From: Haliotis cracherodii | Taxonomy: Eukaryota | Direction of reading: 5' to 3' | Assembly: GCF_022045235.1 (NCBI RefSeq) | Contig: NW_027266269.1 | Location: forward strand, 310,001 to 374,000 | Length of the DNA: 64,000 nt | Part shown: positions 1,024 through 57,937 of the stretch, piece by piece | Layout of the letters: each line of letters starts with the position of its first letter | Position numbering within the stretch: the first letter of the stretch is position 1 | Position numbers and translations under genes: made by a program | Notes under the pieces: model-generated | The model's database searches: none | Seen by the model: the letters and a program-made list of their open reading frames with translations, nothing else | What the model was told of the DNA's origin: nothing

Positions 1024-1714
1024 CTAAGCATGTGACAATTTTGAGTAAATATTGCCAACGACACCAGCAAATTCCCGATTGCCTTCATCTGCAACGTCAT
1101 AAACATCATCCGCTCCACCACCAGCTGTACTTCCTCTTCCATTAGATGACCCACAATGCTTGGCCATGTCTTTCAGTGGTATCTCAGAATACCATTCCAG
1201 CTCCACAACAGAGGCATCGCCCTTCTCGTCAACAGTGTCGCACACAACATCCTCTGTCTTGGTAACACTGTAAAAGTAAAAACAATGTACTTTGATGACA
1301 TTAACAGTAGGCCCACCTTTACTCATATCAGCCATGCGTCCATATTTGCAAAGTTATACATGTTTAGATAATAATACTAATAATGGTGAACTATATTTGA
1401 TACATGACTGATTTAATTGTAGGGGTTATTAGCTGTAAAACGACTTGATTTTTTTCGGGAATTTTCTGCCACAAAACATACATTGTTGCTGGGTTTTTGT
1501 TGTTGTAATATTTAGGCTCATATTTTTAATTAGGAAAATACAGCCAAGGACTTTTTAGCGTCCATCAAACATGCTTGTCAGGCACCCCATGTCACAGTAA
1601 CCACGGATATTTAGAAGTTGGAATGCTAAGTAAAGATATATGGATGAACAACTTCTTTATTACAATTAGGAGCGGCGTTTCGGTGTAGGTTCAACTACAG
1701 AGTACAGATGACAA

Positions 1715-1764
<50 letters not shown>

Positions 1765-4749
1765 AGGTTATGTACACAGAAGGGTAGAAAACATATTGTG
1801 TACACAGAAGGGTAGAAAACATATTGACCGTCCGGTCACGCAAGCATGCATGCACCCACCCACCTACTCACTCACTCACTCACACACTCATGCACTCACT
1901 CACTCACCTGTCCTTTCTCAAGCGGTGACGGTACTTGCAGCACACAACCAGGAAGATGACTGTCATGAAACCGAAAGCTGCTGTGGCAAGCCTTACATAT
2001 AGTCCCACTTTACCACCTGACAAAGAACAATGTTGATGTGAAAGTTTGATTCATTTCCTTACATCAAGTGCGTGAAGAACAGCCAGCCACTGATAACTGA
2101 TCATGTGATATTCTGAACTTGTATATTATTACTTTTACTGCAGGGATAAGACGCATGTGCTAAACATGTCAATATAATTATACTATGGATGAGGTATAAA
2201 GTAATATGAATACACGTTCGTGACTGATGACATTGACCATTGTTGTCAATATGTTCTTCACTGGTGATGTCCTTTGAATAGGTTTCTTTAAAGGGACACC
2301 TTCTCTCATGATGTTAAATACATATCATCGCGTCAAGCTATGTTAATGTTAACAAAATGGCCATGTTTGGATATATACCTAAACGCCTAAAGCATCCCTT
2401 AGGAAAGTCATGATATTACAGCCAGACGTACGAAAATATCCGATTTCTCACCACAGTCAGACCCGTAGTAGGAGTCTACACATCCAGACACACAGGAGGA
2501 GCCCAGCTGACAATATCCTCCATCACAACCACCTGGACATGCAGTACAGTTACCTCCTGGACTGTCACATGGTATGTTGCAGCCAATGCCGTGGTATCCT
2601 TGCACACACCCGTCAGTGCAGTTAGCACTACCAATGCTTGAGATCACACATGTGTTTTTCCTACAGTTCTTGCTGCAGGTAGACTTGCATTTACGTCCGT
2701 AATACCCAGTGTAACAGTCAGTGAGGCAATCCCCGGACTCTCTGTTACAGTCTGGACAGTGATAGGTTTCCTTGCACGAACTGGCTGAAAGTTATATCAC
2801 AGTCGTTATTTGATGGTTTCACGCATTGGAAAATAAGTTCCCTGTTTAGCAAAACTAGGAGATACCTAAGTGACATGATTATGTATTCCTGAGCACCTAC
2901 ATGTATATTCTGGGGGTTCTTCCAAGGAAAGATCAACAGAACGTTAAGCACCTACAAGTATATTCTGGGGATTCTTCCTATGAAACATCAAGAGAACGTT
3001 AAGCACCTACATGTATATTCTGGGGGTTCTTCCAAGGAAAGATCAACAGAACGTTATGCACCTACATGTATATTCTGGGGATTCTCTCTATGAAAGATCA
3101 ACAGAACGTTAAGCACCTACATGTATATTCTGGGGGTTCTTCCTATGAAAGATCAACAGAACGTTATGCACCTACATGTATATTCGGGGGGTTCTTCCTA
3201 TGAAAGATCAACAGAACGTTATGCACCTACATGTATATTCTGGGGATTCTTCCAAGGAAACATCAACAGAACGTTAAGCACCTACATGTATATTCTGGGG
3301 GTTCTTCCTATGAAAGATCAACAGAACGTTATGCACCTACATGTATATTCTGGGGGTTCTTCCAAGGAAACATCAACAGAATGTTAAGCACCTACATGTA
3401 TATTCTGGGGGTTCTTCCAAGGAAAGATCAACAGAACGTTAAGCACCTACATGTATATTCTGGGGGTTCTTCCTATGAAAGATCAACCGAACGTTATGCA
3501 CCTACATGTATATTCTGGGGGTTCTTCCAAGGAAACATCAACAGAACGTTAAGTACCTACATGTATATTCTGGGGGTTCTTCCTATGAAAGATCAACCGA
3601 GCGTTATGCACCTACATGTATATTCTGGGGGTTCTTCCAAGGAAACATCAAGAGAACGTTAAGCACCTACATGTATATTCTGGGGGTTCTTCCAAGGAAA
3701 GATCAATAGAACGTTAAGCACCTGCATGTATATTCTGGGGGTTCTTCCAAGGAAAGATCAACAGAACGTTAAGCACCTGCATGTATATGGAATATAACTG
3801 ATTAAACCTGAACAGCTAAATACAAAAGGATGAGACGCTAAAAAATAGCGAACACTTATACTACCTAAACAACGTTGTACTGACTTATTTGGCTTTGATA
3901 CACAAGACAGTTGATATGACCTAAACAAATAAATGATAAATGTGATGGTTGTATGTAAGTGATTGAGCGAGTGAGTTTGGTTTTACGCCGCTTTTTAGCA
4001 ATATTCCAGCAATATCACGGCGGGGGACACCAGAAATGGGCTTCACACATTGTTCACATGTCGGGATTCGAACCCGGGTCTTCGGCGTGACGTGCGAACG
4101 CTTTAACCACTAGGCCACCCGACCGCCCTGTATGTAAGATTAACATAGGACCTTGATGCAGATGGGATAAAGTATGAAATTATGCATGTAATATCTATTA
4201 ATCATACGTCCAGTATACTCACTAGATCAGCAATATTTACAATACAATGACAACCCCCTTTCACCTCACAACACCATATTCATCAATACAATATCTAAAC
4301 GGTATTCTAACGTATTGACGTAGCACTCATAGACTAAAAATTGAAGTAGGAAGACATATAAATATAGCTAGATAATTGAGAATATGAGAGCAATGTAATT
4401 TAAATGTGAGAGGAGATGAGTTTCATTTCCTGTTAGTTGGTCCTAACTGCGAGTACGAACTACATATATAGAACTGACTTTGTATGTACACCCCACTCAA
4501 CATAAACCATAAATCATGTCAAACACTGATGATTGTACTCCTACAAGAAACATTGTCAATATGCATTTGTCATGCGGCGACATTAGAATATGATCTGTTA
4601 GACATATTTGCAACTACTCCCGAAAATCATGTTTTATGAGCCTGCGTCCTGTCAGTGTGGAATAAAACTTATCCCTATCGAGAGCTCTTTGATTTACCTC
4701 CAGTGGCAACTACCAAGTATGCTATCCATATCATCACCAAGGAAACCAT
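1024..4749 (-). CDS. Gene A: EGF-like (MEGF10/SCARF/CED-1-like) type-I membrane receptor with Tyr-motif tail, about 245 aa
   Basis: Four GT-AG exons with matching phases. 4749-4698: signal peptide MVSLVMIWIAYLVVATG. 2784-2452: Cys-rich EGF modules. 2016-1908: TM LATAAFGFMTVIFLVVCC followed by KYRHR. 1267-1024: tail with YSEI, YDVA, YSKL. Total 738 nt. Confidence 0.85.
1716..1760. repeat. (TA)n microsatellite
   Basis: Directly visible. Confidence 0.95.
2892..3788. repeat. 55-bp minisatellite, about 16 copies, in an intron of gene A
   Basis: Unit gcacctacatgtatattctgggggttcttccaaggaaagatcaacagaacgttaa. Confidence 0.95.
3962..4128 (-). mobile_element. SINE family B (tRNA-Asp-like head)
   Basis: TAGTGGTTAAAGCG..GTCACGCCGAAGACCCGGGTTCGA; TSD tgtatgtaag. 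Confidence 0.85.
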
Positions 4750-10387: not shown

Positions 10388-10389
<2 letters not shown>

Positions 10390-10441
<52 letters not shown>

Positions 10442-10877: not shown

Positions 10878-13800
10878 TCATTCAGTTGTGCGATTCTTCT
10901 TGGATTTAAAAAAACCTGAAAGCCTCTGTCCAGATGATCGTTTCATAGGTTTGGATGGTGGTAAATGTTCTATGATTTTGCTGCATCCTATTTTATGCGC
11001 AAGAGTCGCCACATCCTCCCCTGCATTGTTCGCTACTCTCAAATCTGCTCCTTGTTTTCTGAGAAATTCAAAAACATCAACTCTCTCATGCAACACTGAT
11101 GTCATGACAGGTGTCAAACCAACATTGTTTATGGCGTTGATATCAACCGAGTCTATGATGCATTTCACCATATCAAGCTGACCATGCTTAGTAGCAAGAT
11201 GTAGAAGAGTCTGTCTATTCTTGTCCACCAGAGTTTGGTCGGCACCACAGGACACCAAGAAAATATACACGTCCATATGGCCACCACACACTGCCCTCAT
11301 TAGTGGAGTCTGATCATCCCTGCCTCTGACGTCGATGTCAAAGTAGCCACTCTCTTGTTTCACAATGGCTCCCTTCCCACTTTGACCGACTACAAAGGTA
11401 GCATTATCATTCTCCAATGAAGTCGATGATTGTATGACATCCTTCGGTGCATTACCATCCAGAGGATCGTTTTGTCCACTGAACACTGATCTCGCTGCAT
11501 GCATTGATTTTGGCGAGTTGTTCTTTCCCCGACGATTTACGTCACGGAGTTTCACAAGACATTCGACAATAGCTGTGCTCCCACCCTGACATGCTGAATG
11601 TAGAACATTGTCATTGTAGTCATCAGTCAAAGTGAGGTCAGCATTCTGCTTCACAAGCAAATCGAACACGACCTTCCTTCCCGCCCATGCCGCAAACATG
11701 ACTGGTGTCCAGCCGTGTTTTCCAGAAGTATTGATGTCAATCTTTGATATCAGAATGTTCACAATGGAATAGTTCCCACCCTGACAGGCATGGTGTAAGA
11801 CAGTGTTATTATCATCATCAGTCAGTCTGATATTGGCCTTCTTTGACAAAAGTAGTTTAAACAGGGCTGGTTCTGCAATCAAGGCTGTGATCATTATTGC
11901 TGTTCTCCCGTGGCTTCCCATACAGTTGATATCAGTGCCTCGGCGTGCCAACAAATCTTTCACAATGAAAATATTTCCACCAAAACATGCTAAATGTAAT
12001 ACAGAATTGTTCTTGTCATCCCTTAATCTAATATCAGCCCCCTTTGACACAAGTAACTTGAAGACGCTCTCCATTCCTTTGTCAACTGCAAACATCACTG
12101 ACGTCCACCCGTAGTTTCCCCGAATGTTGATGTCGAACTTTGGCAGTAACAGTTCCACAATGGAGAGATTTCCTCCATGACATGCAAGATGGAGGAGGTT
12201 GTTGTTGTTGTCATCTTTCAGCGTGAAGTCCACTGTGTGTAGGAAAAGCGGAAATACATCCATATGTCCATGTACAGCTGCCTTCATCAATGGTGTCCAG
12301 CCATGTTTTCCCCGACTATTACATTCAAACTTTGGCACTAGTTGTAGTAACAGAGATGCATCACTAACGCGAGAAGCCACATGAAGGAGACTGTTGTTGT
12401 CATCATCGGTCAATGTGATATCAGCCTTTTTTGACATGAGAAGGTCGAAAATGTCCTTCCTCCCAGACAATAGTGCACACATAACCGGTGTCTGTCCATT
12501 GTTGCCTCGTGTATTGATATCTGTGTGGGGGAGCAGACATTCTACCATGGTCTTGTTTCCATACCAACATGCAAGATGAAGCACAGTGTTTTTGTGGGCA
12601 TCTGATAATTTGAAATCAATTTTGTTTTGTTTTATCCTTTCAAATGGCTTCCCTTTTTTGGTAAGATAATCTAAGATATCCTCCTTCCCAAATGCCACTA
12701 CACACAAAACTGGTGACCAGCCATTTACTCCTCGTCCATTAATATACTGATTCAGATACAAATCCGGAGAAAGATGTTTCTTGAGCGCTTTTTTTACATG
12801 TTTTACGGTGGACTTATGTCCATGTTGGCATGCCAAATGCAGTAAATTGTAGTTGTTGATGTCACATAAAGTGATGTCTGCTTTGTTTTTCAAAAGGATG
12901 TCAAAACATTCCTCCTGTCCAGAGACAACTGCATACATCACTGGTGTCCAGCCGTTCAACCCAGGCCTATTGATGTCACAGTGAGGAAGAAGTCGCTCAA
13001 GGATATTCTTGTTCCCAATGAAACAGGCATACTGGAGAATGTTATGCTTGATATCATCAGACAAGGAAGTTGGATCTGTGAACATATGATTTAATGTGTC
13101 AGATATTTCACTTCGTTTCCATATGTGATGCCAGATGTACATACTGAAAGCACCACTGACAATAGCATCTGCCATTCTGTCAGCAATTATTCCACTGTAG
13201 GCCTCTGAGAAAGGAATCATGAGCTGGTGTTCATTAACAGGAATACCATCGTCTTGCTGATCCTGTACGTGCTCAAGGAGGAACTTTATACCGCAATGTT
13301 TAATAACAAACACTGGTTTAATATTGAATAAGACCAAAGCACAGACATCATACATGATTGAATGGGAATATGCTGTTGTGTTTCCTTCTGTCAAAAATGT
13401 TCGAGAGAAGCTCCGGACAGCTGTAGCGACACCCTGTCTGGTTGATGTCTTCACAAGAGTTGTAACTGCCAAGAGGTGAGCCTCTAGGTCTTGGCGGGCA
13501 TCTTCAGATTCAAGTTGATTGTCTGTACTGGCACCTTTTGTCTTGAGTTGACTGATTGGGCAGGCACATTCCGTATCCAGTTGATTCGCTGGGCGGATAT
13601 CTTCAGTTTCCAGTTGATTGATGTTTATCTGACCTTCACACAGTACGATCAGAATGAGGGCAGCTGACTTGTCATCCAATGAGCTAATAATCTTTCGAAG
13701 TTGATTTGTGATGTAAAACATAGGTTTCTCGAAAAAACTCTCATGGTGCATTTGAAAGCCACAACAACTGGAGAAAAGTTTGCATTCTAGAGGAAAACCG

Positions 13801-16800
13801 ACAGTCGTTTCCTCATAAGCAAAAACATTCTTCACATCCATTTTACACTTATAGCGAAGTTTGTATGTCTGCCACAATGCTTTCTTCTCCTCCATGGTAT
13901 AAGTCAGTTTGACATCTGATGAACTTTTGAAAATATGTTGACCTCCTAGAGTTGACATTGCACTCTCAAGAGTGTTAGTTTCTGCAGTGAATATAACACA
14001 GATGTTTGGTTGATTCAGCTTTCTTTGTTCCTCTCTTTGTTCTTGCTGCAGACGCTGGTATCTTCTTTCTGATCTGGACTCGCACTGTTCCAGGTGCACG
14101 TGGAGGTCGTACAAAAAGCGCTCAAGACCGGTCAGATCCATATATGATCTGACTGTCTTACACATGTCATCAAATATGACACACACGTCTTTGCCTTTTT
14201 CTAGATAATCAGACAACTGGACTTTATAAGCATCTTCAACCAGCACCAGCTCATACCCCTGCTTCCTGTATTCAGCTCCCAGCATCAGGGCCATGGATGT
14301 TTTACCTTCTCCTGGAACACCGCTTATCGTAACATGGCCAAACGTCTCCAACTTTTCTTTAGCCTTCTTAAAGCTCTCAGTTTTAACAAACACACTTTGG
14401 ACATCCTTAATCTTCTGTTCCAGTGAACCTGTAAACGTTCATAAATAGTTGTAAACAAATCAAAACGAAGTGTGAAATTCAGCATCACCAGTTCAACTCG
14501 TTTGACTCTAATTTCATAGTTTGATAAAGATAAATTGTTTAGTTATAGTATAAGAGTGTCATCTCTGCATCAAATAGTATATTTATTATTATCTAAACAA
14601 AAGACCTCAGGTTACCTTTGTGGTACGTACGCGTGCATGTAATCATGCATGAAGGACATACCAGACCAATACTTCTCATTACTAATGTTGATAAAGGTAT
14701 TCAGTTCTTACCAGACGGCAAGAGCACAAAACTGCAGGGTGAATCAGCACCTCTCTCCAAAGCTGGTCAGGAAATAAAAGTATATGAATATGCTTCCACA
14801 ACTGAAATGCATATGTTGCAAAGACTTATATGCGAAGATAATATTAATTTGTTAACATATCGTTGTTATTGTTGTTCAGGGTATTCGGCTTACAGTCATA
14901 TATTCTGAAACATGTGTTCTGCACATATTCCACTCAAAAGGTTAGGGTAATTACATCACCAGTGAACATATTAATTATTAATACACAAGACCTTTAACCA
15001 GCATTATATTTACCATGAGATAATGTAAAGTTTACACGGAAAACAAATTAAACAATTGACATTCACTTTGTATTAGCTCACATGACAACATTCATTCATA
15101 GATACATACTTTATTTTATATGTATCCCATACTTACTGGCTTCACCTTCCTCTGCCATGAAAGGTTCTGAAACATATTAGATGTGATGGTTAGATGAAGC
15201 ATGTTTATCCCCCTCTGGATTGTGTAATCTCCATTTCGATATCTAAAGTACAACAAGTAATAGAACCAATACAAACACGCTAAACACCATGTTCAATATA
15301 CCGAGCTTGTATTGCTAATGTTATTGATGTAACTAAGCTGCGTAGATCACATACCAATACACACATAAGACACACGACAATGTCTCTTTCCAAGTCTATA
15401 GTGTCGTAAGCCCATAACTAGGAAACAGTTGATGTTTCTCAGGATTTACAATCTGCTGTTTCTTTCAATCAATGCTTGTGGTAGCAGACAATTTATCTGG
15501 AAATGCTGAATATTTATATTCCCTGTCTGAGATGAAGATAAATCAGCCCAACAAACATAATTATGATTTAGTTTCTTCTATCACAATTATTTTTAATGTA
15601 TGTCAAAAAATATCTCGTTTATACAAACCCAATGATAATACAGTGTCACCTTAAGTAGAATTAATGAGTTACGAGATGTATACTCACCATCTTCACCAGC
15701 TCTGTACCTGAAATAAACAAAATCGAGATTATGACAAATGTATAAATCAGCATGTCCGAATTGATAGTTTTAGAAATCAGGGGATTGCCACTTCATATGT
15801 GTACTTCGTTGTATTTAGATATATAATTTACTGCACATAGACGTAAGTGATGGTGATGAAGAAGACGTCCTGCCTCAGGTTATATTTCTGTATTACCTGG
15901 CAGTTGTTCTCCAGCATGGAAGTATCCCTGTCACTGCATCGAAAATCCCTGTGGTTTCTCCTCTTTTCCGTTTTTGTTTGTAAAGAAATCTGAAAATATG
16001 GTCAGTTATTGAGAAATATATGAACTGTAATATGTAAACGCTGTCATGTTGCAGCCCAATATATCAGTCCTCCTAACCTCCTTAAAACTAACCTAACACT
16101 TTATCTCACAATGCAAACAAAATAGTATTGAGTTTGCTGAGGTGAGGTGAAATGGAGTTTAACATCACGTTCAATATTACTGCACTTATATAGCGACGTG
16201 CATGCACGTGTGCATGCCGATTTAATAGTGCTAGACTACGAAGACAACATGCCGCAGTTTAACATGAATGCCCAACCCAGACACACTCCGAGCCATCAAG
16301 TCCTTGTTTAGCCCCTTAATGTCAAGCGCCTGGCAGGGTATAACAAGAACCTCAACATATTTTGGTATTACGCGACCGGGGATCAAAGCCCGTTCCTTCT
16401 GCTGTCTGGAAGGATGCTCCGCCACCAGCCCATGTTGTACAGATTCAGACTTCACCAATAAGTTCACAATACTGTTTTAATTTGTAATACACACATTTAG
16501 CAATAATCTGGACTCCATCTCCTTGGGTTAGGTACACACTTACAGTATGAACACCACCACAGCGAAGGTTAGGTACACACTTACAGTATGATCACCACCA
16601 CAGCGAGGGTTAGGTACACACTTACAGTATGAACACCACCACAGCGATGACAACCAGGATGACGAACACAGGGACAAGTATCGCAGCCGGGTCCGGTGTT
16701 TTCTCTGCGTTGGATTCACTCGGTGTTGTCGACGATGTGTCTGTGACAAAATACCGTCACGTAATATAAAGCATTAATATTTGCACATTTTCTTAACATA

Positions 16801-19286
16801 TATGAGTCTTAGGTTGTATTTGTACTTACATGTACTGGATTCCCCGGGAGGTGACGCCGTCGTCTCTGTACAGACATAAATACAGACAACGTCGTCATGT
16901 ATTCCAAACACTACTACAGTAAAGTATGACTAGTCCATCTTGATACACTCATGTTCTAGCTTGATTGTTTTAGAAAATCAGTACATGAATATACTTGTAT
17001 CTTATATCACATCATATTTATATCCAACTGCAGACACAGATAAAATACAGTAAAACATTGCATAACAGTGTTTATGAGTGTACAGCCCTGTTATATTTGC
17101 CTGATTGAAATGGAAACGACAAGACCCTTTCCATATTCAGTAGAAATATCTGCTACAAGCAGAGTCGGTTGTACAGTTCTTACTATATCAGGAGCATGTG
17201 TTTATGCATCACTATCAAATACTGATGAAGCCAGGTGGCCGCAAAAAGGTGGGCGTATCCTGCCCCACCAGTGGCAAATGTACCAGAAAACCCGTACACG
17301 AGTAAGGCTAAAATCCACACTCCTTTTGTTTATCTTTTGTTTACTCTTGAGATATAATCCAAACTTTAGCCACAATCAGCAATATTCCAGGTACATGACA
17401 GTGTTCTGTATATAATCGAGTCTGGACCAGACACACCAGTGTTTGACGATGATCCACGCACTTGGGTTACGATAACATGCATCAACCAAGTTTGCAAGCG
17501 GTTTGTTGTCTTGAACAACACAGGTTGCTGAAGATCTTTTTTTTTCAAATCCTTATGGGTTTAAGAGCTAAGCAATCAGTAGGTTTGCATATTCACTAAA
17601 AAGTTAAGAAACATCCTTAAAACCGAAATATAACTACCATACCTTCAGAAAGACCAAACAATGAATAACAAAGTGTTTTATTGATTCAGAGCAAGTTCAA
17701 TCACGCCGAGTTACCACCCTTGGCAGCATAAAACAGTCTAAAAGTCAGTCTCCATTTGGTGAACCACCCACAGTCAGTCAGAATCACATCATAAACAGAC
17801 TATCAATGTAAAACCTCGATTCCGATGTCATGAATGTTCACAGCAATGTCAGTATCGAATGTAGCCTCCACAAGCTCTAATCACGGCCTGACACAAGTGA
17901 AGATTTGAAAGAGGTTACTGAAAGCAGCTTGAGGAATTCGTTGCCATTCATCTGAAGGGCCCAAACTATGGATATCGCCATTTAACTAACACTGTTTTTT
18001 GTGTCAGAAAATATTAGTGGTCCCTAACTGATTTTGTTGAGCATTACAATAGCAAAACAATACAAAACCATTTTAGATATATCTCCCACAGCAGATCAGC
18101 ATCAACTATCACTAATTTGAATTAACTTGCTCTACCTGCTTCTGTAATAGAGAGATGTGCCGACCTGGCATTTTGCTTCTATCAGTTGCGTAAACTTCAG
18201 AGAAGTCTAACGCCAGGGGCGGTCGGGTAGCCTAGTGGTTAAAGCGTCCGCTCGTCACGCCGAAGACCCGGGTTCGCTTCCCGACATGGATACAAGGTGT
18301 GAAGCCCATTTCTGGTGTCCCCCGCCGTGATATTGCTGGAATATTGCTAAAAGCGGCGTAAAACCATACTCACTCACTCATTCTAACACCGTTGTTACAC
18401 CACACCCGTTAAAGGCAGAAACGTCCACACAAAAGTACACCATGAATATCATGCTGGGCATGCCCTCTCACATAATGCACGTGCATCACGTGACGTTTCA
18501 TAAGCTTTTTGAAGGGCCAAACCATCAAACTATGTATATCTTGTTGGGCTATCATTACATAACTAACCCTGTTTTTGTGTGAGAGAAAATATTAGTGGTC
18601 CTTACCTGTTTTTGTTGAGTATAAAATTGCCTGATTTGGAAGCAAGACAATATCATTAAACCGTTTTATATGTGAGAACTATATCCCACAGCAGACTGTT
18701 GTTAGTGCAGATGAGCACCATCTATCACACATTTGAAAAAACTTGTTTTCAAACCTCTAATACTGTTGCAAAAGTCCCCTGTGTAGTCTCCATCACAACC
18801 AAAGGTGCAGATGCCATTTTGGCGATTACAGGTGTTTCTCAAGCAGTTCTTGCTGCAGTGTTGATCACAGAGATCCTCAAACCACCCCGGCACACACCCC
18901 TCAGAGCACTTCCCTGTCTCCTTGTGGCAGTGTTTGAGGTTTCGCACTGGGTCAGGGATACAAGTCGAAGAACAATTTTTGCTGCAGTTTTCACCATACT
19001 TCCCCCATTCACACTGAGTCTGGCCATGTGTTTCCAATACTGAAAGGTTGAAAAATACGCAGTGAGGATAACGAAAGGAAGGAAACCGGACAGTATTATT
19101 TCACCTCAACTGATCAATGTTTTGGTACAGGGTAATGACAAAGAACAGTAGAATTTCAAGTACTGTACTCTACCGTGTGAAAAGAATGTATTGAGTTGGG
19201 AGATATGTTCAAATATGTGACAGCCGAAAAAAAACGTGTTCTCATTACTCACTGACTATCATCAGAATGGGGTAGAGTAGCTGCAT
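10878..19286 (-). CDS. Gene B: signal peptide - EGF ectodomain - S/T stalk - TM - STAND (nSTAND3-like) NTPase - ankyrin repeats, about 1404 aa
   Basis: Nine coding exons, all GT-AG with consistent phases and no stops: 19286-19253, 19039-18755, 16865-16830, 16740-16626, 15989-15897, 15707-15688, 15166-15137, 14762-14712, 14428-10878. Sum 4215 nt = 1405 codons. The last exon is in frame with the 1171-aa ORF. Confidence 0.82.
10965..13055 (-). other. About 19-20 ankyrin repeats in alternating LHxAC / TPxM pairs (gene B)
   Basis: Repeats of about 33 aa such as GWTPVMYAVVSG, NLLHLACHGGN, DINxRG and ADITLTDD; a degenerate stretch near 11350-11520. Confidence 0.95.
13750..14393 (-). other. STAND-class P-loop NTPase domain (nSTAND3-like) of gene B
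   Basis: N-terminal FVKTESF motif, Walker A GVPGEGKT (14321-14298), Walker B VCVIFDD and GFP (GxP) motif; downstream SHSIMYD in the helical region. Confidence 0.85.
18216..18380 (+). mobile_element. SINE family B
   Basis: Same consensus; TSD tctaac(g/a)cc. Confidence 0.85.
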
Positions 19287-21937: not shown

Positions 21938-21938
<1 letters not shown>

Positions 21939-28961: not shown

Positions 28962-30056
28962 TAAATAGGTTACATGTAATCAGCGGTCACAGGAACACAT
29001 ACAACATAAAATAGGTTACATGTAATCAGCGGTCACAGGAACACATACAACATAAAATATGTTACATATAACCAGCGGTCACAGGAACACATACGACATA
29101 AAATAGGTTACATATAATCAGCGGTCACAGGAACACATACGACATAAAATAGGTTACATATAATCAGCGGTCACAGGAACACATACGACATAAAATAGGT
29201 TACATGTAATCAGCGGTCACAGGAACACATACAACATAAAATAGGTTACATGTAATCAGCGGTCACAGGAACACATACAACATAAAATATGTTACATATA
29301 ACCAGCGGTCACAGGAACACATACGACATAAAATAGGTTACATATAATCAGCGGTCACAGGAACACATACGACATAAAATAGGTTACATATAATCAGCGG
29401 TCACAGGAACACATACGACATAAAATAGGTTACATGTAATCAGCGGTCACAGGAACACATACAACATAAAATAGGTTACATGTAATCAGCGGTCACAGGA
29501 ACACATACAACATAAAATAGGTTACATACAATCAGCGGTCACAGGAACACATACAACATAAAATATGTTACATATAACCAGCGGTCACAGGAACACATAC
29601 AACATAAAATAGGTTACATACAATCAGCGGTCACAGGAACACATACAACATAAAATAGGTTACATGTAATCAGCGGTCACAGGAACACATACAACATAAA
29701 ATATGTTACATATAACCAGCGGTCACAGGAACACATACGACATAAAATAGGTTACATATAATCAGCGGTCACAGGAACACATACGACATAAAATAGGTTA
29801 CATATAATCAGCGGTCACAGGAACACATACGACATAAAATAGGTTACATGTAATCAGCGGTCACAGGAACACATACAACATAAAATAGGTTACATGTAAT
29901 CAGCGGTCACAGGAACACATACAACATAAAATATGTTACATATAACCAGCGGTCACAGGAACACATACGACATAAAATAGGTTACATATAATCAGCGGTC
30001 ACAGGAACACATACGACATAAAATAGGTTACATATAATCAGCGGTCACAGGAACAC
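28962..30056. repeat. 46-bp minisatellite, about 24 copies, beginning at the gene C stop codon
   Basis: Unit cataaaataggttacatgtaatcagcggtcacaggaacacatacaa. Confidence 0.95.
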
Positions 30057-40384: not shown

Positions 40385-41450
40385 CTAGAGAACTGTCACT
40401 GGCTCCATGTCACGTGTCTTCCCCATACTGCTTCTGCTGTGTCCTTATTAACTTCTACTGGAAGACTGTCACTGGCCCCATGTCACGTGTCGTCCCCGTA
40501 TTGCTTCTGCTGTGTCCTTATTAACTTCTACTGGAAGACTGTCACTGGCCCCATGTCAGTGTCGTCCCCATATTGCTTCTGCTGTGTCCTTCTACAGGAA
40601 GACTGTCACGTGGCTCCATGTAACGTGTCTTGTGTACACTGTAGTCTACACTATAGTCCTTGTTCTGTGTCCTCATCCACCTGTACAGGGAGAGCCGTTC
40701 TTATGGTCTGGTGGTTATAGCGTCTGCCCGGAGATTGACCGCCGACGTCATACCAAAATACGTTGGAAAAGATGGCACTTGCAGTTTCCTTTGCCAACGC
40801 TGGGCATGCAGGGGCTACGACAAAGACTACTTCGGTATGGTCTATTACAAACATCGTCAAGCAAGGACACTCACAAATTTGCTTTCCCATCGCGAAATAA
40901 CTGCAATAACCTTGAACGCGTTGTCAAACCCGTTTCCATCTCACCACACCTCACGTTGACATGAAGGCTATCATTGCTCCCATGTCACTTTCGTCTACAT
41001 CACAGTGTCTACTCTGTGTCCCTATCAACATTTACAGAAAGACGATCACTGGCCCCATGTCACTCTCGTCTAAACTACAGTGTCTGCTCTGTGTCCCTGT
41101 CAACGTCTACAGGAAGACGATCACTGGCCCCATGTCACTCTTGTCTACATCACAATGTCTAAGCTGTGTCCCTGTAAAGATCTACAGGAAGACCATCACT
41201 GGATCCATGTCATTCTTTTCGCAACAGTGTCTACTCTGTGTCCCTGTCAACATCTACAGGAAGACGATCACTGCCACATGTCACTCTCTACGCCACAGTG
41301 TATACTCTGTGTCCCTGTCAACATCTACAGGAAGACAATCACTGGCTCCATGTCATTCTCTACACCACAGTCTCTACTCTGTGTCCCTGTCAACATCTAC
41401 AGGAAGACGATCACTGGCCCCATGTCACTCTCGTCTACGTCACAGTATGT
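40385..41450. repeat. 71-75-bp tandem repeat derived from the gene D C-terminus and stop, interrupted by a SINE
   Basis: catgtca recurs at 40981, 41056, 41131, 41206, 41277, 41349 and 41421; older copies at 40385-40680. Confidence 0.9.
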
Positions 41451-43190
41451 ATGCTGTGATCTTATAAACATCGATGCTAGCCTCTCTCTGGTCGGTTCAT
41501 CTCAGTATTCAACTGCCTCCTCGCCTGGACTCTCTCTACAAATTACCCCAAACGCCACATATATTGTTGTCTAATGACAAGTTGATACTATGTACACTTA
41601 TATGGATGAACAGTTTAAATAACTTCCTATATTATTGAATGATTACACTTAGTCAAGTTGAATGAATGAATGAATGAATGAATGAATGAATGAATGAATG
41701 AATGAATGAATGAAACTTTACCGCTGTGAGGTCATAATTCGGCAATAGCAGACGCAAACTTTGATCAGGATGCAGAACATAAAGAGACACAACACTGTCA
41801 ACAGCCCCATGTTGATGGACTGATGGAGATCCCACTCACCACTCTTCTCTTCATCTACATACATACACACAAAACATCAACTACAGCTGCTGAAAGTGTT
41901 ACGTTAGGGGGGAGACGTTATCAGTGGTTCATACGTTCAAGTCTAACCTGTTCAAGTACAACATAGATGGGTGATTCCAGTCCGTGCATATATCAACACA
42001 GAACAGGGAATGGACAGCAGAAGCCTTGCGCCTACAACTAAGTTTGGCATGTGGATAATCCATTGGTTATGCGGGATCTCCCCTCTATATATATTAATAT
42101 AAAGAGAATATATTCACCTTGTAACCATGTGTCAATGTCACATTCAGCTAAAGTACAGTTGGCTCTACAGGAAGGTTCACATCCAAGTTTGGTCCTGTTA
42201 CAACCTCTGAAGCACATCCCTGTCATCTGATCACAGTCTCCATCAATACACACACCACATGTCCTGTTGCAGTGTTCACCATAGAATCCTGGATTACATC
42301 GTTTATCAAAGGGTTCGTTCTTAGGGTGCCAGGTCTTATTGAGACATTTGTCAGAACAATGTTTGCAGTCTCTGTCTATATGTCCAGGTACACAACCACC
42401 TTCACAACCTCTGGTAGTGTTCGTCTCCTGTTCACAGTTCGGACCAGGAAGTGAAGGATGACACTCCGTGCATGTTCCTGTTATTCTGTTGCATGTCTTA
42501 CACCCTCTGTGACATGTCTTGCAGCCAGACCCATAGTAGGAGTCCACACATCCAGACATACAGGAGGACCCCAGCTGACAATATCCTCCATCACAACCAC
42601 CTGGACATTCTGTACAAACACCTCCTGGGTTGTAACATGGGCTGCTACACCCCGGGCCTTGGTATCTCGGGACACAACCCTCAGTGCAATTATCAGTGCC
42701 ATTTATTGAAAGTGTGCATTTCTCGTTTCGACAATTTTCGTTGCAAATAGAACTACACTTCTGATCATAATATCCAGGATCACACTTAGAGATGCAATGC
42801 CCTGTGGTGCTGTCACAGTCTGAACAGTGTTGGTGACCTTTACATTTGGCAGCTGAAAATGATGGTAAAAATGTATATTACTAAAACGTTTTTCTGCAAA
42901 AAGCCCAAACTATAAGCATACAATGTGTGGATTTAATATGTTAAATAATTAAAACTGGCCCTTGCGATTGGCGATATGACTTCCTCAGTTTTATTACGAC
43001 AGCCGATCATGATACAAGGAGGAGTGATGTTATCTATAGAACAGCGCATGTTACAGATATAAATGAATTACATGTCAGAAATCGAGAAACTTGAAATAAT
43101 ATAATCTATCATATTGGAAATATGCATAATGTCTTCACCACGGGTGTACACCATTATGCACGCTACGCTCAGAATTGTCATCGGTGCCAT
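41397..43190 (-). CDS. Gene D: EGF-like type-I membrane receptor with long ectodomain; in-frame TGA in the tail exon (truncated allele or pseudogenising)
   Basis: 43190-43139: signal MAPMTILSVACIMVYTR. 42852-42118: EGF, 735 nt open. 41854-41722: TM GLLTVLCLFMFCILIKVCVCYC. 41535-41397: tail ESPGEEAVEY*DEPT...YCDVDESDMGPVIVFL*, with TGA at 41504-41502. Confidence 0.78.
41659..41713. repeat. (GAAT)n microsatellite next to the gene D TM-exon donor
   Basis: Directly visible. Confidence 0.95.
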
Positions 43191-50542: not shown

Positions 50543-50612
50543 AGAATCCGTCGGACGCGAACCTGCGACCTTCGGATTATTAGCCTGACAGCTAACCGAC
50601 TGAGCTACGTCC
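50543..50612 (-). pseudogene. tRNA-Ile(AAT)-like pseudogene or SINE head
   Basis: GGACGTAGCTCAGTCGGTTAG..CTAATAA..AAGGTCGCAGGTTCG; mismatched stems argue against a functional tRNA. Confidence 0.55.
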
Positions 50613-51004
50613 ACAATGTTTAATTTAGTGCAAATTTACCTAGTCATTCCTATGACGTTACGGAACTGAACGAAAAGGGTCGAATAGGTGACGGACACTT
50701 ACGAAGGTTCCGGGTAGGCATGGTATCTCGTGACTTTAGTCTACAGACACTTACGAATGATCCCGATGCTATTTGATTAATTTGTCCCAGCTCGGCTGAT
50801 ACATCTGATACATTAATATTACGTTATGCACCTAAACACTCGTCGTCACACTTTCACGCTCACAATTCATTGATGTGGTTCCCAGTTCAACTGCCTCTGC
50901 AAGTACCAGGTCACATGATATGTTTGAATGATGTACTGACCAGGACAGTTGTCCCTCCCCAGTGAGTTCAAAGTGCATCTTTGTTTCATCAACCACATCA
51001 TATC

Positions 51005-54000
51005 CTAGACACGTGCATCTGACCTCAGCTCCACATAGCCGGCTCCAGAGGCCTGCCGTCCCTCATCAGTGAGTGCATCATACATCTTTGCTTCATCAAC
51101 CACATCATATTCCAGAGCACCAATGGCATCTTGTGACACATGTATGTCCTGGGTAGGCGTGATGTACTCCTGGGACCTGCAAGTTCAATGCTTGGTCTGA
51201 CTACCCATGTATTCTTGAAAATAATGACATGATTTCCTAACAATTGTAACTATTGTTGTTCTAGTAAGTACACTGATGGATGAACTATTTAGATAAATTA
51301 TCTTAAGGTGAATACTAAAAATATGAATGTTTATTTGTTTGTTTGTTTGTTTAACGCTGCACTCAGCAATATTCCAGCTACATGATGATGGTGTGTAAAA
51401 TTCGAGTCTCTACCAGACAAACCAGTGTTTGATATCATAAGCATCTATCTACGCAATTGGGATACGATGAAAGATAGTTAATATCAGTAAGGATATGCTT
51501 TTACACAAAACTCAGACAGTATGGCTATATCTGACCTGAGCTCCACATAGCCGGCTCCTGAGGCCTGCCGTCCCTCATCAGTGAGTGCATCATACATCTT
51601 TGCTTCATCAACGACATCATATACTGGAGCACCAATGGCCTCTGGTGACACATGCATGTCCTGGGTAGGTGTGATGTATTCCTGGGACCTACAAGTTGAA
51701 TGCTTGGTCTGAATACTCACGCCTTCTTGATTGTACTGACACAGTATGTCATTAATGTGAGTGTATGTGTGCGTGTGGTTGAGTTTGCGAGTGTGTTTGC
51801 GAGTGTGCTTGTTGTTAGCGTGTGTGTATGGTGTTGTTGTTTGTGTATGAGTGCGTGTGGTTGAGTTTGCGAGTGTGTTTGAGTGTGCTTGTTGTTAGCG
51901 TGTGTGTGTGGTGTTGTTGTTTGTGTATGTGTGCGTGTGGTTGTGTTTGCGAGTGTGTCGGGTAGTGTCTTTGTGGGGGGTGCGTTGCGTGCGTGTGTGT
52001 TTGTGTTAATCAGTGCGTGGGTGTGTGTGTTGTCGATGTGTGTGTATGTGCGCGTGTGGTTATGTTTGCGAGTGTTAATGAGGGTGTATGTTGTTGTCGT
52101 GTGTGTGTGTGTGTATATTTGTTTGCGTTGGGGTGTGTTGGGATGTATCTTGTTGTGTGCGTGTATGTGTGTTTTTGTGTTTGGTATATGTTGTATGTGT
52201 TTGCATTTGCATANNNNNNNNNNNNNNNNNNNNNNNNNNNNNNNNNNNNNNNNNNNNNNNNNNNNNNNNNNNNNNNNNNNNNNNNNNNNNNNNNNNNNNN
52301 NNNNNNNNNNNNNNNNNNNNNNNNNNNNNNNNNNNNNNNNNNNNNNNNNNNNNNNNNNNNNNNNNNNNNGTGTGTGTTTGTGTTAATAAGTGCGTTTGTT
52401 TGTGTTGTCTATATGTCGATATGTGTGTTTGTGTTAATGAGTATATTTGTGTATAATGTCATACTTTAAAGTTTACATTGTTTCATTCATGATGATTGGC
52501 TGAAGAGGTAGTCACATGATCTCAAAAGTCCACACGATCTGCGTCATACCAAAAGACGTTAACATATGGTACTTGTTGTTACCATGTCTGGCGCTCGGCG
52601 ATAAGGGGCAGAAACAAGGACTGGTGGGCTAGGAGTCAGTATACTGTGTCTGAGCGGGTTATCCATGTTAAACTGCAGCATGGTATATCAGTGAGCTAGC
52701 ACTATAAATCGGCATCAGTCTGGACTAGTACAAGCAGCCACACACATACATACACGTGCATGCACGTCGCTATATAAGTGCAATCATCTTGGACGCGACA
52801 TTAAACCCCATTTCACCTCACCTCATTGAAGTGTGAAAGATTAAAAAAGTGCTGGTTACACTCGCAGGCTCGGGGTTCACACAGTTTTACCAGCGCTTTT
52901 AATCGTTCACACTTCAATGAACCTATCCAAACTGACGTTCAATTCTTAGGTATACTGTTGTGTCTGCAAATTTGTCTGTGTGCGTATATTTTTTATGTGT
53001 GTATGTTGCTATGTGTGGAAATCATTTCATCACATAGAAACATTCATTGTGGTATCAATGGTATGTATGATTGTACATACAACATACTACAAACAATAGA
53101 ACAGTGAAGGTTACCATAACACGGCAACACACCTACCTTTGTTTGGGGAAACGCTTGCAGTAGCAGAGGCAGAGTGTCAGCAAGATGCCCGACACAGGGA
53201 GTAGCAGTGATGGCAACACACCCATCTCTGTTTAGGGAAACGCTTGCAGTAACAGAGACAGAGTGTCAGCAAGATGCCCGACACAGGAAGTAGCAGTGAT
53301 GCCAACACACCCACCTTTGTTTGGGGAAACGCATGCAGTAACAGAGACAGAAAGTCAGCAAGATGCCCGACACAGGGAGTAGCAGTGATGCCAACAGCCA
53401 AGTCAGCACACTGCCTGTCTTCTGATCGTCATTTCCATCTGACAAAGAGACGAGCGACTAAATATTTAAACATGTTTAATGAACTAGTCATTTGTGTAAC
53501 TCTTGTTCCATGTCCATGAGCAAATAAATAGCGAATACATCAGGTTCATGTTTGGAACGAGCATGGTCATAAAGCTTCAGGAACAAGTGTACATTTTATA
53601 ATAGTAAGGTACATTACACATGTGCGTGGCATGCATGTTGATAATGTGTCTGTGTGGTGTGTTTGTTTAACGTCGCACTAAGCAATGCTCCCGTTGTTAA
53701 ACGACGGCCTGTACGCAATCGAGTCTGGGCTAAGCAACCCAGTGATGTATTATGTGCACTTTTCTATGTACCATGAAAGACTGGCTTCTGACCCTGCCCA
53801 CCCTATCCATCCAGGCGTCTTTACTTCCAGCATACGTTGCTGGGGACACATGAATGTTGATGTACTGTATTGAGGAAGTAATTGGGTTAAGCAGTTTTAC
53901 AAGTGTGACATTAGAAACTGAGGATTTAGCCTTTTGAACAAATTCATTTATACAGTCATCTATCCAGCAGGTGTCTGTATAAGGGGAATGTACACCTACG

Positions 54001-57000
54001 TAGTGTCGTGGTACACGTCCTTGTCATCTGATCAGACAAACAAGAACATCCATACATACTACACTTGTATGTTTGTAGTTTTGTCCTAACATCAGGTTTA
54101 CAACCATGCATACAACCCTGGGTAGCCACGTGTCTTACATGTTTAGAGATAAATAAGGAGGAACATCCAGGTATACAACCATGCATAAAATACCGGGTAG
54201 CCACGTGACTTACATGTTTAGAGATACATAAGGAGGAACATCCAGGTATGCGACCATGCACACAGTCCCGGGGAGCCACGTGTCTTACATGTTTACAGAT
54301 ACATAAGGAGGAACATCCAGGTATACGACCATGCATACAATCCCGGGTACCCACGTGTCTTACATGTTTAGAGATATATAAGGAGGAACATCCAGGTATG
54401 CGACCATGCATACAGTCCCAGGTAGCCACGTGTCTTACATGTTTAGAGATACATAAGGAGGAACATCCAGGTATACAACCGTGCATACAATCCCAGGTAG
54501 CCACGTGTCTTACATGTTTAGAGATACATAAGGAGGAACATCCACATATACAACCATGCATACAATCCCGGGAAATCACGTGTCTTACATGTTTAGAGAT
54601 ACATAAGGAGGAACATCCAGGTATACAACCATGCATACAGTCCCGGGTAGCCACGTGTCTTACATGTTTAGAGATACATAAGGAGGAACATCCAGGTATA
54701 CAACCATGCATAAAATCCCGGGTAGCCACGTGTCTTACATGTTTAGAGATACATAAGGAGGAACATCCAGGTATACAACCATGCATACAATCCCGGGTAG
54801 CCACGTGTCTTACATGTTTAGAGATACATAAGGAGGAACATCCAGGTATACAACCATGCATACAATCCCGGGTAGCCACATGTCTTACATGTTTAGAGAT
54901 ACATAAGGAGGAACATCCAGGTATACAACCATGCATACAGTCCCGGGGAGCCACGTGTCTTACATGTTTAGAGATACATAAGGAGGAACATCCAGGTATA
55001 CAACAATGCATACAATCCCGGGTAGCCACGTGTCTTACATGTTTAGAGATACATAAGGAGGAACATCCAGGTATACAACCATGCATACAGTCCCGGGTAG
55101 CCACGTGTCTTACATGTTTACAGATACATAAGGAGGAACATCCAGGTATACAACAATGCATACAATCCCGGGTAGCCACGTGTTTTACATGTTTAGAGAT
55201 ACATAAGGAGGAACATCCAGGTATACGACCATGCATACAGTCCCGGGGAGCCACGTGTCTTACATGTTTAGAGATACATAAGGAGGAACATCCAGGTATA
55301 CAACAATGCATACAATCCCGGGTAGCCACGTGTCTTACATGTTTACAGATACATAAGGAGGAACATCCAGGTATACAACCATGCATACAATCCCGGGTAG
55401 CCTCGTGTCTTACATGTTTAGAGATACATAAGGAGGAACATCCAGGTATGCAACCATGCATACAGTCCCGGGGAGCCACGTGTCTTACATGTTTAGAGAT
55501 ACATAAGGAGGAACATCCAGGTATACAACAATGCATACAATCCCGGGTAGCCACGTGTCTTACATGTTTAGAGATACATAAGGAGGAACATCCAGGTATA
55601 CAACCATGCATACAGTCCCGGGTAGCCACGTGTCTTACATGTTTACAGATACATAAGGAGGAACATCCAGGTATACAACAATGCATACAATCCCGGGTAG
55701 CCACGTGTTTTACATGTTTAGAGATACATAAGGAGGAACATCCAGGTATACGACCATGCATACAGTCCCGGGGAGCCACGTGTCTTACATGTTTAGAGAT
55801 ACATAAGGAGGAACATCCAGGTATACAACAATGCATACAATCCCGGGTAGCCACGTGTCTTACATGTTTACAGATACATAAGGAGGAACATCCAGGTATA
55901 CAACCATGCATACAATCCCGGGTAGCCTCGTGTCTTACATGTTTAGAGATACATAAGGAGGAACATCCAGGTATACAACCATGCATACAGTCCCGGGTAG
56001 CCTCGTGTCTTACATGTTTACAGATACATAATGAGGAACATCCAGGTATACAACAATGCATACCATCCCGGGTAGCCACGTGTCTTACATGTTTAGAGAT
56101 ACATAAGGAGGAACATCCAGGTATACAACCATGCATACAATCCCGGGTAGCCACGTGTTTTACATGTTTAGAGATACATAAGGAGGAACATCCAGGTATA
56201 CAACAATGCATACAATCCCGGGTAGCCACGTGTTTTACATGTTTAGAGATACATAAGGAGGAACATCCAGGTATACAACCATGAATACAATCCCGGGAAG
56301 CCACGTGTCTTACATGTTTAGAGATACATAAGGAGGAACATCCAGGTATACGACCATTCATACAATCCTGGGAAATCACGTGTCTCACATGTTTAGAGAT
56401 GCATAAGGAGGAACATCTTGGAGTGTGAGTGAGAGAGTTGGGTTTTACGCCACTTTTAACTGTATTTCAGTTATAACACAGTGTGTCAACTTAATGCGGG
56501 AGGAAAGCCCGAAGTGATGAAGGTTTCAGATGTTTGCCAGTTCGGTGAAACCAACGAACACGGGGATGGTGCTGACAAACCTTGAAACATAATCGGGGCG
56601 AACCGGGATTCGAACCCACAATCATAGTTTTCTGGAATACCCAAGCGACGCAACCCTGCACAGTGCACCGCGTCGCCTTAGACGACTTTCGCCACCCGTG
56701 CCCCCAGGAACATATTGGATGAAATGAACACTGTTCAAGGGTAGGTTATATGTGAAGGGTTATTATGGACATTTACATACATTTATATCAAAGCTAAGCT
56801 CACAGTATTGGTTACAGACATACTCACACGATGCGTGTTTACAGCCGACCATTTCACAATCTTCATCAGTTCCATTGCAGGGTGGACATTCACACTTCGG
56901 ACCAACATATGGAGCGTGACACTCAGTACATTCTCCTGCCGTCCTGTTGCAGGACTTGCACCTACTTGAACACGTCTTACAGCCAGTCCCATAGTAGGAG

Positions 57001-57937
57001 TCTACACATCCAGACACACAGGAGGAGCCCAGCTGACAATATCCTCCACCACACCCACCTGGACATGCTGTACAGCCACCTCCTGGGTTGTCACATGGTA
57101 TGTTGCAGGCTGTACCCTGATATCCCGATACGCAACCGTCAGTGCAGTTGCCATTGCCATTGCTTGAAAGTACGCATTTCCTTTTCAAACAATTATTACT
57201 GCAAACAGAACTGCATCTCGTACCATAATACCCAATGGTACACTGGAGGCAGTATCCCGTCGTGCTGTCACACTGTGAACAACGTTTGATGTCCTTGCAT
57301 GGTGGGGCTGGAGATACGGATCTTGTATTCATCGCTGGGAATTGAATTTAAACACTTGAGTTAGTATGCACGGTGCATTCAAGTATATTACATAATGAAT
57401 AAGATAAGTCTGCCTGTCGACATGAAAATTAATCTGAAAAACAACAAACGTCAAACTTGTCTTGTTTTAATAAAGACACTCAGAAAAACTAAAACGGAAA
57501 CGACTGGCTCTGTCACTATCCATGGTTGGTCCATCCTACTGAGGGGACACAGGTGGCCCAGTCGACTAAGGCGCTGCGATTCCCTGTGCAGCGTTGCGTC
57601 GCTTGGGCACGTCAGAGACCTATAATTGTGGGTTCGAATCCCGGTTCTAGGTTTGTCAGCACCATCCCCGTGCTCGTTGGTTTCACCGAAGTGGTAAACG
57701 TCTGAGACCTGCATCACTTCGGGTTTTCCTCCCACATTAAACTAACACGCCGTGATATAACTGGAATACTGTTAAAAACGGCGTTACACCCAACTCACTC
57801 ACTCACTTACCTGATACATCCTACTAGCATTACATTGAGGCCTACTGCAGGTTTATTTAGGTGAACTGTCCTCCGTCATTCTCACCTTGTGCGGAAACAA
57901 GAGTCGACATCAAGAACAGCATAATTGACTCGGTCAT
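51005..57937 (-). CDS. Gene E: EGF-like type-I membrane receptor, close paralog of gene C, with duplicated Tyr-motif tail exons (about 312-352 aa)
   Basis: 57937-57886: signal MTESIMLFLMSTLVSAQ. 57334-56777: EGF. 53438-53315: TM. 51688-51536: tail copy 1 (or read-through to the stop at 51484). 51176-51005: tail copy 2. Both tail exons have phase-2 acceptors. Confidence 0.72.
51760..52460. repeat. (TG)-rich low-complexity region containing an assembly gap (52214-52369)
   Basis: Directly visible. Confidence 0.9.
54100..56418. repeat. 75-bp minisatellite, about 31 copies, in an intron of gene E
   Basis: Same unit as 32170-32772. Confidence 0.95.
56420..56705 (-). mobile_element. SINE family A
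   Basis: Duplicate of 32780-33063. Confidence 0.85.
57543..57806 (+). mobile_element. SINE family A
   Basis: Duplicate of 33884-34149. Confidence 0.85.

Follow-up and report, generated by a model that had tools for sequence, protein, structure and literature searches.

A black-abalone receptor array of two lineages, one of them a membrane-spanning nSTAND3-ankyrin family

A stretch of 64,000 nucleotides from the black abalone, Haliotis cracherodii (contig NW_027266269.1, hereafter C6, positions 310,001 to 374,000; the window), contains five receptor genes, A to E, and represents a slice of an array of ~3.8 Mb in which at least 35 STAND receptors lie among receptors with tyrosine-bearing (Tyr) tails. 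The array holds two separate receptor lineages: the members of lineage 1 (A, C, D and E) share a cysteine-rich (Cys-rich) head and end in a short Tyr tail drawn from several unrelated classes; lineage 2 is represented by B, a type I membrane protein encoded by spliced exons, in which an intact nSTAND3 nucleoside triphosphatase (NTPase) precedes ankyrin repeats. Taken as a whole, the locus is, in our judgement, rather probably an abalone birth-and-death array of two lineages with reshuffling of heads, in which gene B is proposed to be an outside-in switch. The original prediction, made from the letters of the window, had described a cluster of five genes with interchangeable cytoplasmic tails; the window proved to be part of a far larger array.

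STAND immune sensors are usually regarded as cytosolic, and few exceptions at membranes are known. At one chromosome end of the black abalone, at least 35 copies place a signal peptide, an ectodomain and a single transmembrane segment (TM) directly above an intact switch, an arrangement hidden by annotation. This raises the question of whether membrane clustering, instead of a repeat-bound ligand, can trigger a STAND protein; if true, these proteins would constitute a surface-receptor class that merges membrane pattern recognition with resistosome-like assembly. The membrane-spanning nSTAND3-ankyrin family is the part most worth pursuing, and the mosaicism of the Tyr tails is ordinary by comparison.

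Two receptor lineages in one array

A query of the genome with the NTPase returned 119 nSTAND matches, 38 of them on C6 and 36 of these in its first 3.6 Mb, and two head queries gave at least 150 matches each. For the locus census, 120 ten-kb stretches chosen around matches were read together with the window (1.26 Mb, part of the array); they contain 78 head-bearing loci, 16 of the B type and 62 others. The first tails of the 62 non-B loci belong to classes E (20), V (15), A (13), L (8) and short-E (2), with none found at 4 loci, and the A, E, V and L tail profiles are mutually unmatched (hhalign probability <=1.2%). The two lineages are interspersed; the genes next to STAND genes vary from locus to locus, and no constant 1:1 pairing is seen.

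The STAND interior had been considered one of the interchangeable tails, which the following results do not support. In a tree of 70 heads, from which loci without a tail or with a short match were excluded, the 13 STAND heads form one clade with support 100/100, corresponding to a single change on the tree. A B-type exon lies at most 25 kb upstream of 35 of the 38 STAND exons on C6, nearer than any lineage-1 exon among the matches listed. A STAND tail on a lineage-1 head was found at 0 of the 62 loci, and no exchange between the lineages was seen in the 1.26 Mb read. The heads also differ in the window, where gene B is 35-40% identical to A, C, D and E over short stretches and these four are 56-84% identical to one another. 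Of 44 homologues from four Haliotis species, 37 combine a head of 14 or more Cys, a TM and STAND, and the other 7 are N-terminally short models.

CED-1, Draper, MEGF10 and SCARF1 are type I engulfment receptors with Cys-rich EGF-like heads and Tyr tails, and the tails of the first three contain NPxY plus YxxL. Lineage 1 is similar to these receptors in its type I topology, heads and Tyr tails, and annotation gives its members these labels; it differs in its short one-exon heads, in the absence of NPxY and of immunoreceptor tyrosine-based activation motifs (ITAMs) from the 58 tails (0/58 each), and in its large recombining array. The label 'EGF' is based on the Cys spacing, on the names given in annotation and on weak matches of fold (for a model with a predicted local distance difference test score, pLDDT, of 69, Z 4.9 to perlecan laminin-EGF and 4.4 to SCARF1), but Pfam gave no EGF family for these heads and a PDB sequence search gave no match. 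The appearance of human SCARF1 among the best, weak, fold matches indicates a likeness of fold only, not orthology.

Among the 58 tails, with L tails cut at 200 aa for motif counts, YxxL/I occurs in 43 and the pattern of the immunoreceptor tyrosine-based inhibitory motif (ITIM) in 6; opposed ITIM/ITAM outputs were not found in these tails, so that the predicted logic of activating and inhibitory pairs is not supported. The motif YDV[AIV]D, previously noted in A, C and E, indeed recurs (12/13 A, 10/20 E and 4/15 V tails), but in tail classes without detectable profile homology. True YDxV is confined to the E class, in 10 of 20 tails. In nephrin, as described in the accessible text of PMC12203975, YDxV binds Nck, and the E-class YDxV would likewise dock Nck-type SH2 adaptors; the hydrophobic, PDZ-type C-terminal end of the V-class tail would be another output. 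We speculate that the lineage-1 proteins are Draper/SCARF-like uptake or adhesion receptors with phosphotyrosine docking in their tails.

Several lineage-1 loci depart from this simple plan. At G000:C6:1399051-1408900 (P0065, P0070), Ig domains are inserted between head and TM, and the TM exons appear to end in phase 1. At G000:C6:1690000-1703000 and 1341000-1352000, two head exons are present, and an E-class tail is followed by an L-class tail exon. In H. rufescens, P0050 has an L tail on the same TM as P0048; alternative last exons may thus switch outputs.

Gene B, a membrane protein with a STAND interior

Gene B has nine exons and encodes 1404 aa in total, and its interior is identified as nSTAND3 by Pfam (PF20720, 56.5 bits against a curated cut-off of 27.2; E 3.5e-15), with Ank matches too. 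The feature list of STAND NTPases comprises Walker A, Walker B (hhhhDD), the sensor-1 Thr, GxP and the winged-helix His, all of which are present in gene B; family-wide, GxP is found in 39/40 and the winged-helix His is invariant (63/63). For Avs5, also an nSTAND3 protein, immunity is reported to depend on the Walker motifs and on the repeats (10.1101/2025.07.08.663546). In the model of the interior (pLDDT 82), the NTPase strand/helix order is present, and the C-terminal superstructure-forming repeats are ankyrins. Fold searches with the whole interior gave ankyrin matches only, which filled the result lists; with the STAND part, a PDB sequence search gave nothing below E 0.29, and an Atlas search returned nSTAND3 clusters scoring under 0.9.

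Compared with animal NLRs (NACHT-LRR), gene B has no NACHT or LRR by Pfam. No N-terminal death-fold effector was found: the N-terminus consists of the signal, head, TM and a short linker of ~65-90 residues up to the NTPase, and because neither DED nor TRADD-N was found in this linker, gene B appears to be without such an effector. In annotation, the family is labelled 'PP6 regulatory ankyrin subunit-like' or uncharacterized. Gene B shows 0 differences from the annotated model P0242 over the last 1180 aa, and for every intron, the joint was seen in contigs of four runs from one study, guessed to be RNA, with some joints in 1-2 runs only and no single contig covering all of the gene. In a tree of 44 proteins, the abalone TM members form one clade (support 97), in which two TM-less proteins and one short model are nested.

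Related forms of gene B were also observed. P0241, an annotated 1207-aa isoform of its near-identical copy, starts past the TM (downstream of window position 15166), and a cytosolic STAND-ANK form would result. On C26, head-TM-nSTAND3 genes without ankyrins are present (G000:C26:1248047-1253163, 2311095-2313572 and 2542257-2546356; L121-L132); some have two tandem NTPase exons of ~400 aa, and some Walker A motifs end in GKR or GKK (P0094, P0238). The ankyrin-less and double-NTPase members could possibly be helpers or dampers. The TM-less nSTAND3 relatives P0092, P0097, P0098, P0100, P0103, P0106, P0108 and P0110 have low-complexity N-termini ending in short Asn/Val/Ile/Gly motifs, which to us recall RHIM amyloid signals; Pfam RHIM gave no match in the scanned N-termini of cytosolic nSTAND3 relatives, even at relaxed thresholds.

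Exchange of modules

The comparison of heads with TMs covered 52 genes, as 6 of 58 were dropped because they bear Ig or lack a confident TM or a full head. In these genes, tail class changes 12 times on the ectodomain tree vs 7 times on the TM tree, and on the 70-head tree, the tail labels of Tyr-tail genes change 12 (E), 8 (V) and 8 (A) times, of which starred branches force 7, 7 and 3. Near-identical heads are present on different signalling halves: counted as pairs, not events, 21 of the 44 with >=92% head identity have unlike TMs (<80%). By the same counting, 8 of the 54 pairs with >=90% TM identity differ in tail, and all 8 include gene E or its sister at C6 2.10 Mb. In two gene pairs, an identity of 97-99% in unique blocks stops at or just past the head exon, beyond which the genes are unlike. 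For the last 38 head codons, dS (synonymous divergence) is 0.115 vs 0.284 (195 pairs, 51 heads), so that conversion or crossing-over has probably acted on this tract. In two species (P0053, P0244, P0245), annotated proteins join the head of D to the TM and tail of C, which may reflect a genomic chimera or read-through splicing.

In lineage 2, head dS is often far above NTPase dS in 12 STAND genes (one truncated gene dropped), for example 1.24 vs 0.22, and in 11 STAND genes, the head and NTPase trees conflict (approximately unbiased test, p 1e-7 and 2e-13, for groups picked post hoc). The head/TM/tail comparisons and this conflict together point to the phase 1-1 head exon as the main mobile unit in both lineages. 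Unequal crossing-over or gene conversion has likely rearranged the modules, for the most part at the ectodomain exon or shortly past it, and the mosaicism of the Tyr tails, as far as these alignments tell, is ordinary array recombination.

Gene E differs from this pattern. Five of the six C-type heads lead to a C-type tail, and the exception is gene E, the ectodomain of which is 84% identical to that of gene C; its similarity to C-type genes stops near 53075, and similarity to native E-tail genes starts near 51704. The broken gene at 2.10 Mb has the whole of this breakpoint interval in common with gene E (85-87%), so one event accounts for both. Gene E is, by this comparison, one of few true phase-2 tail swaps. 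The four runs contained no contig joining its C-type TM to the E tail or both of its tail exons, at a thin cover that makes this result uninformative. A second, older phase-2 swap onto an E-class tail is suggested for a TM class that mostly carries V tails; a single contig, of depth 4.3, links this TM to an E tail, its loose end having been compared by eye. Congruent exon trees, named in the original prediction as its refuter, were not seen, and tail exchange through the phase-2 intron does occur in gene E, but the main route is a different one, most swaps joining a head exon to the TM and tail of another gene. The common phase-2 intron is expected from common descent; it allows swaps without being their main route.

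These results bear on the paired-receptor locus envisaged at the outset, in which one head family has interchangeable tails at the phase-2 intron and the Tyr-tail members bind or regulate the STAND member. The interspersion of the lineages fits such a locus, as do the phase-2 end of the TM exon in 42/58 genes (from an automatic search with known misses and several mis-called genes), the two phase-2 swaps onto E-class tails and, as a precedent, the FF/FcoR pairs of Botryllus (PMC12065747, as described there). On the other hand, the swaps are mostly head swaps, none of the 62 lineage-1 loci read carries STAND, none of the 58 tails contains an ITAM, and the neighbours of the STAND genes vary; we consider this explanation quite improbable.

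Selection

Selection was assessed by pooled pairwise counts, not site models, of pairs that are not independent. In lineage 2 (48/66 pairs), the pooled ratio of nonsynonymous to synonymous divergence (dN/dS) is 0.29 for the B-type head, 0.50 for the NTPase, 0.54 for the helical part and 0.43-0.53 for the ankyrins; in lineage-1 heads, it is 0.47-0.56. The diversifying selection that had been predicted is thus not seen in these domain-level windows (0.29-0.56). The binding face of the ankyrins, numbered after work on designed ankyrin repeat proteins (DARPins), evolves no faster than the remaining positions when both are set against a common dS (0.49 vs 0.49 in 5 genes; 0.42 vs 0.41 in 10 genes). 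Positive selection on heads or on the ankyrin face is accordingly unsupported by pooled pairwise dN/dS.

This lack of positive selection would suit a non-immune or largely neutral expansion, in which adhesion, growth or gamete-related receptors spread by segmental duplication and the chimeras are by-products. Several copies are broken, and abalone chromosomes are described as having large segmentally duplicated regions, one of them rich in ankyrin genes (PMC12627906, accessible text). We nevertheless regard such an expansion as very unlikely, given the intact STAND motifs, the purifying selection across four species and, in snails, the mapping of parasite resistance to clusters of MEGF receptors (PMC12297450, main text).

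Direction of signalling in gene B

We propose that gene B signals from the outside in, a reading to which we give slightly less than an even chance. The head would bind a ligand displayed by a microbe, by a damaged cell or by some other cell, and membrane clustering would make it easier for the STAND part to exchange nucleotide and oligomerise; the ankyrin solenoid, the binding face of which is not diversifying, would recruit a conserved host partner. Swapping of heads would pair old binding specificities with new switch backbones. Because the ATP switch and the ankyrins sit directly under the membrane, contact outside would likely be followed by an inflammasome-like immune signal. A fuller picture is more doubtful: single-pass receptors with an NLR-type ATP switch fired from outside without a death domain or enzyme, head exons that set specificity, ankyrin-less and double-NTPase helpers or dampers, and the Tyr-tail receptors as an engulfment arm.

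The opposite direction would be that of a tethered NLR that signals from the inside out. The ankyrins of gene B would detect a ligand in the cytosol or the phagosome, or would keep guard over a host protein, and oligomerisation of the STAND part would cluster the TM and either display the head multivalently or re-route the receptor; the head would then serve as the output and might be bound by Tyr-tail receptors of other cells. Several features are in accordance with this. The head is the most constrained part of gene B, the last exon varies in length from ~1180 to 2850 aa across B relatives, and 28 of 39 relatives have an acidic dileucine-type motif beside the membrane, which we take to be a sorting signal. 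In bivalve-type relatives (P0137, P0150), the N-terminal position taken in gene B by head and TM contains CARD or HEPN, and in Avs5, as described for that system, it contains Sir2 (10.1101/2025.07.08.663546). Against it, the ankyrin face is no faster than other positions against a common dS, members on C26 keep head, TM and STAND without ankyrins, and deeply diverged heads have been swapped among close backbones. We hold the inside-out direction to be unlikely. Three points lead us to prefer outside-in signalling: the swapping of old heads among backbones, the lack of diversification on the ankyrin face and the presence of members without ankyrins. The preference is modest, since the usual STAND layout points the opposite way.

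Certain results weigh against the interpretation of the array that we favour. In Avs5, sensing is reported to lie with the C-terminal repeats and the effector function with the N-terminal slot, the reverse of the direction proposed here (10.1101/2025.07.08.663546, in the accessible text). The heads show no positive selection, and against its own dS, the ankyrin face is somewhat faster (0.70 vs 0.46). The 2.10-Mb sister of gene E has a stop in the TM, and tails end early in 4/15 V-class and 3/20 E-class genes; as some chimeras are broken, the mosaicism may in part be no more than neutral debris. The trees are based on ~110 protein or 110-330 DNA columns. That the runs are RNA is a guess; none of those listed is recorded as such.

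Relation to known systems

We found no published description of a membrane nSTAND3-ankyrin family in abalone, in a search that left most subscription journals outside, and of the five papers naming nSTAND3, the four listed include none on molluscs, judging by title; in the accessible text of PMC13449251, nSTAND3 is mentioned merely as a domain label. The nearest published kinds to gene B are the oyster TM-TRADD-N-STAND receptors and the anthozoan TM-NLRs. The Cys-rich-TM-DED-TRADD-N receptors of Crassostrea virginica (Kaur et al. 2021, PMC8195603), as far as described there, have variable C-termini including STAND and ankyrins; like the abalone proteins, they are a molluscan lineage-specific expansion (~50) of single-pass proteins with the STAND/ankyrin parts inside the cell, whereas abalone B has no DED/TRADD-N, a different head and a fixed STAND-ANK interior. 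The figure data of that paper may include a TM-STAND-ANK example. In C. angulata, P0166 has a different Cys-rich head, one TM, nSTAND3 and ankyrins and forms a separate long branch in the 44-protein tree, which suggests a parallel origin of a membrane STAND receptor. The anthozoan TM-NLRs (PMC5094078, as described) also place a STAND immune NTPase at the membrane, as NACHT-LRR proteins with 3-5 N-terminal helices; gene B instead starts with a signal peptide, and its folded ectodomain is followed by a single TM, nSTAND3 and ankyrins. The phage-defence protein Avs5 (Sir2-nSTAND3-TPR; 10.1101/2025.07.08.663546, accessible text) has an NTPase of the same Pfam family and C-terminal helical repeats, but it is bacterial and has an enzymatic N-terminal effector, which gene B lacks.

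At the level of the array, as far as these sources describe them, Biomphalaria PTC2 (PMC7494358) is a comparable gastropod cluster of single-pass polymorphic TM receptors, and the SudRes1 MEGF-RPTP cluster (PMC12297450) contains gastropod single-pass, MEGF-rich receptors linked to parasite resistance; the SudRes1 receptors end in phosphatase domains, and 'ankyrin' and 'NACHT' do not occur in the main text. The Botryllus fester family (FF)/FcoR (PMC12065747, accessible text) resembles the abalone array in its clustered receptors with exchangeable tyrosine outputs, but has Ig/sushi heads, ITIM/hemITAM and fixed pairs, whereas the abalone array has neither fixed pairs nor ITAMs. A study of selection following withering syndrome (PMC13229213) lists among its balancing-selection outliers, in the accessible part, three PP6-ankyrin-like genes and ced-1-, draper-, MEGF10- and SCARF-like genes. 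These labels are those carried by genes of the abalone array, a correspondence of labels only, as the table has no coordinates, and read mis-mapping in such arrays could mimic a balancing-selection signal. In its accessible text, the herpesvirus-selection paper PMC9327721 contains no mention of ankyrin, EGF or scavenger.

Gene models and further observations

The five genes are all encoded on the minus strand, co-oriented as the original prediction had them, and their exons join in frame, with borders fixed by coordinates (Table 1). The prediction was also right about the signal exons of 52 coding nt in A, C, D and E, the phase 1-1 Cys-rich/EGF-like exons and phase-2 TM ends of all five genes, and the tail motifs, including the stop in D. 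The common plan of signal, EGF, TM and tail applies to A, C, D and E but not to B, which has a stalk exon, four juxtamembrane exons and a STAND-ANK exon starting in phase 1.

Table 1. Coordinates of the gene models in the window
Feature	Position	Strand	Exons and basis
Gene A, four exons	1024..4749	-	4749-4698 signal, 52 nt; 2784-2452 Cys-rich/EGF-like; 2016-1908 TM; 1267-1024 tail
Gene B last exon, phase-1 start, nSTAND3 NTPase then >=15 ankyrin repeats	10878..14428	-	Pfam, motifs, model
Gene B four juxtamembrane exons	14712..15989	-	15989-15897, 15707-15688, 15166-15137, 14762-14712; joints and frame
Gene B stalk exons	16626..16865	-	Ser/Thr stalk 16865-16830; stalk and TM 16740-16626, ends in phase 2
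Gene B ectodomain exon, B-type 14-Cys head, phase 1-1	18755..19039	-	Identity comparison, joints
Gene B signal exon, 34 coding nt	19253..19286	-	Joint 19039/19253 found in run X1
Gene C, four exons	30045..34276	-	34276-34225, 33683-33135, 31515-31392, 30207-30045 (tail)
Gene D	41398..43190	-	43190-43139, 42852-42118, 41854-41722 (TM), tail exon from 41535
Gene E tail exons, E-class	51003..51688	-	51688-51536, 51176-51003; YITP, YDVV, YDAL, YVEL, doubled
Gene E breakpoint interval in phase-2 intron	51704..53075	-	Common to broken sister gene at C6 2.10 Mb
Gene E 5' half, C-type	53315..57937	-	57937-57886, 57334-56777 (weak donor), 53438-53315 (TM)

Gene A (245 aa) is intact, carries an A-class Tyr tail with YSEI, YDVA and YSKL, agrees with the annotated protein P0087 when compared by eye and has a near-identical copy at C6 2.466 Mb. 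Gene C (295 aa; relatives P0055/P0056) is also intact, with a V-class tail ending in IVFL. C and D had been counted as two different outputs, but their tails belong to one family, ..Y.D[VI]..GP.IVFL. The V-class tail of gene D has an in-frame TGA at codon 318 and is intact in the relatives P0051 and P0052; gene D is thus truncated or decaying. In gene E, the two tail exons are presumably spliced together, and two partial TM repeats lie downstream of the TM exon.

In C, D, E and B, the ends of tail or TM exons recur as tandem copies further downstream (window 29000-30050, 40400-41400, 53075-53310 and 16530-16626, respectively), and these repeats could provide spare acceptors, donors and crossover tracts. 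No tRNA was called in the window; a tRNA-like stretch at 50530-50600 on the minus strand, which ARAGORN did not call, is probably derived from a short interspersed element (SINE). Seven stray open reading frames of the window did not reach the cut-off for any Pfam family. An identical 75-bp Cys-codon-rich minisatellite in introns of C (32169-32773, ~8 units) and E (54088-56417, ~31 units) gives rise to long spurious open reading frames in these introns.

Further large arrays of related Cys-rich exons are present at G000:C67 0.5-11 Mb and 33 Mb and on C35, C31, C40 and C11. An inverted copy of B and A, ~99% identical, lies 2.1 Mb away at G000:C6:2450418-2468181 and, by its similarity, would be either a recent segmental duplication or a kept second haplotype.

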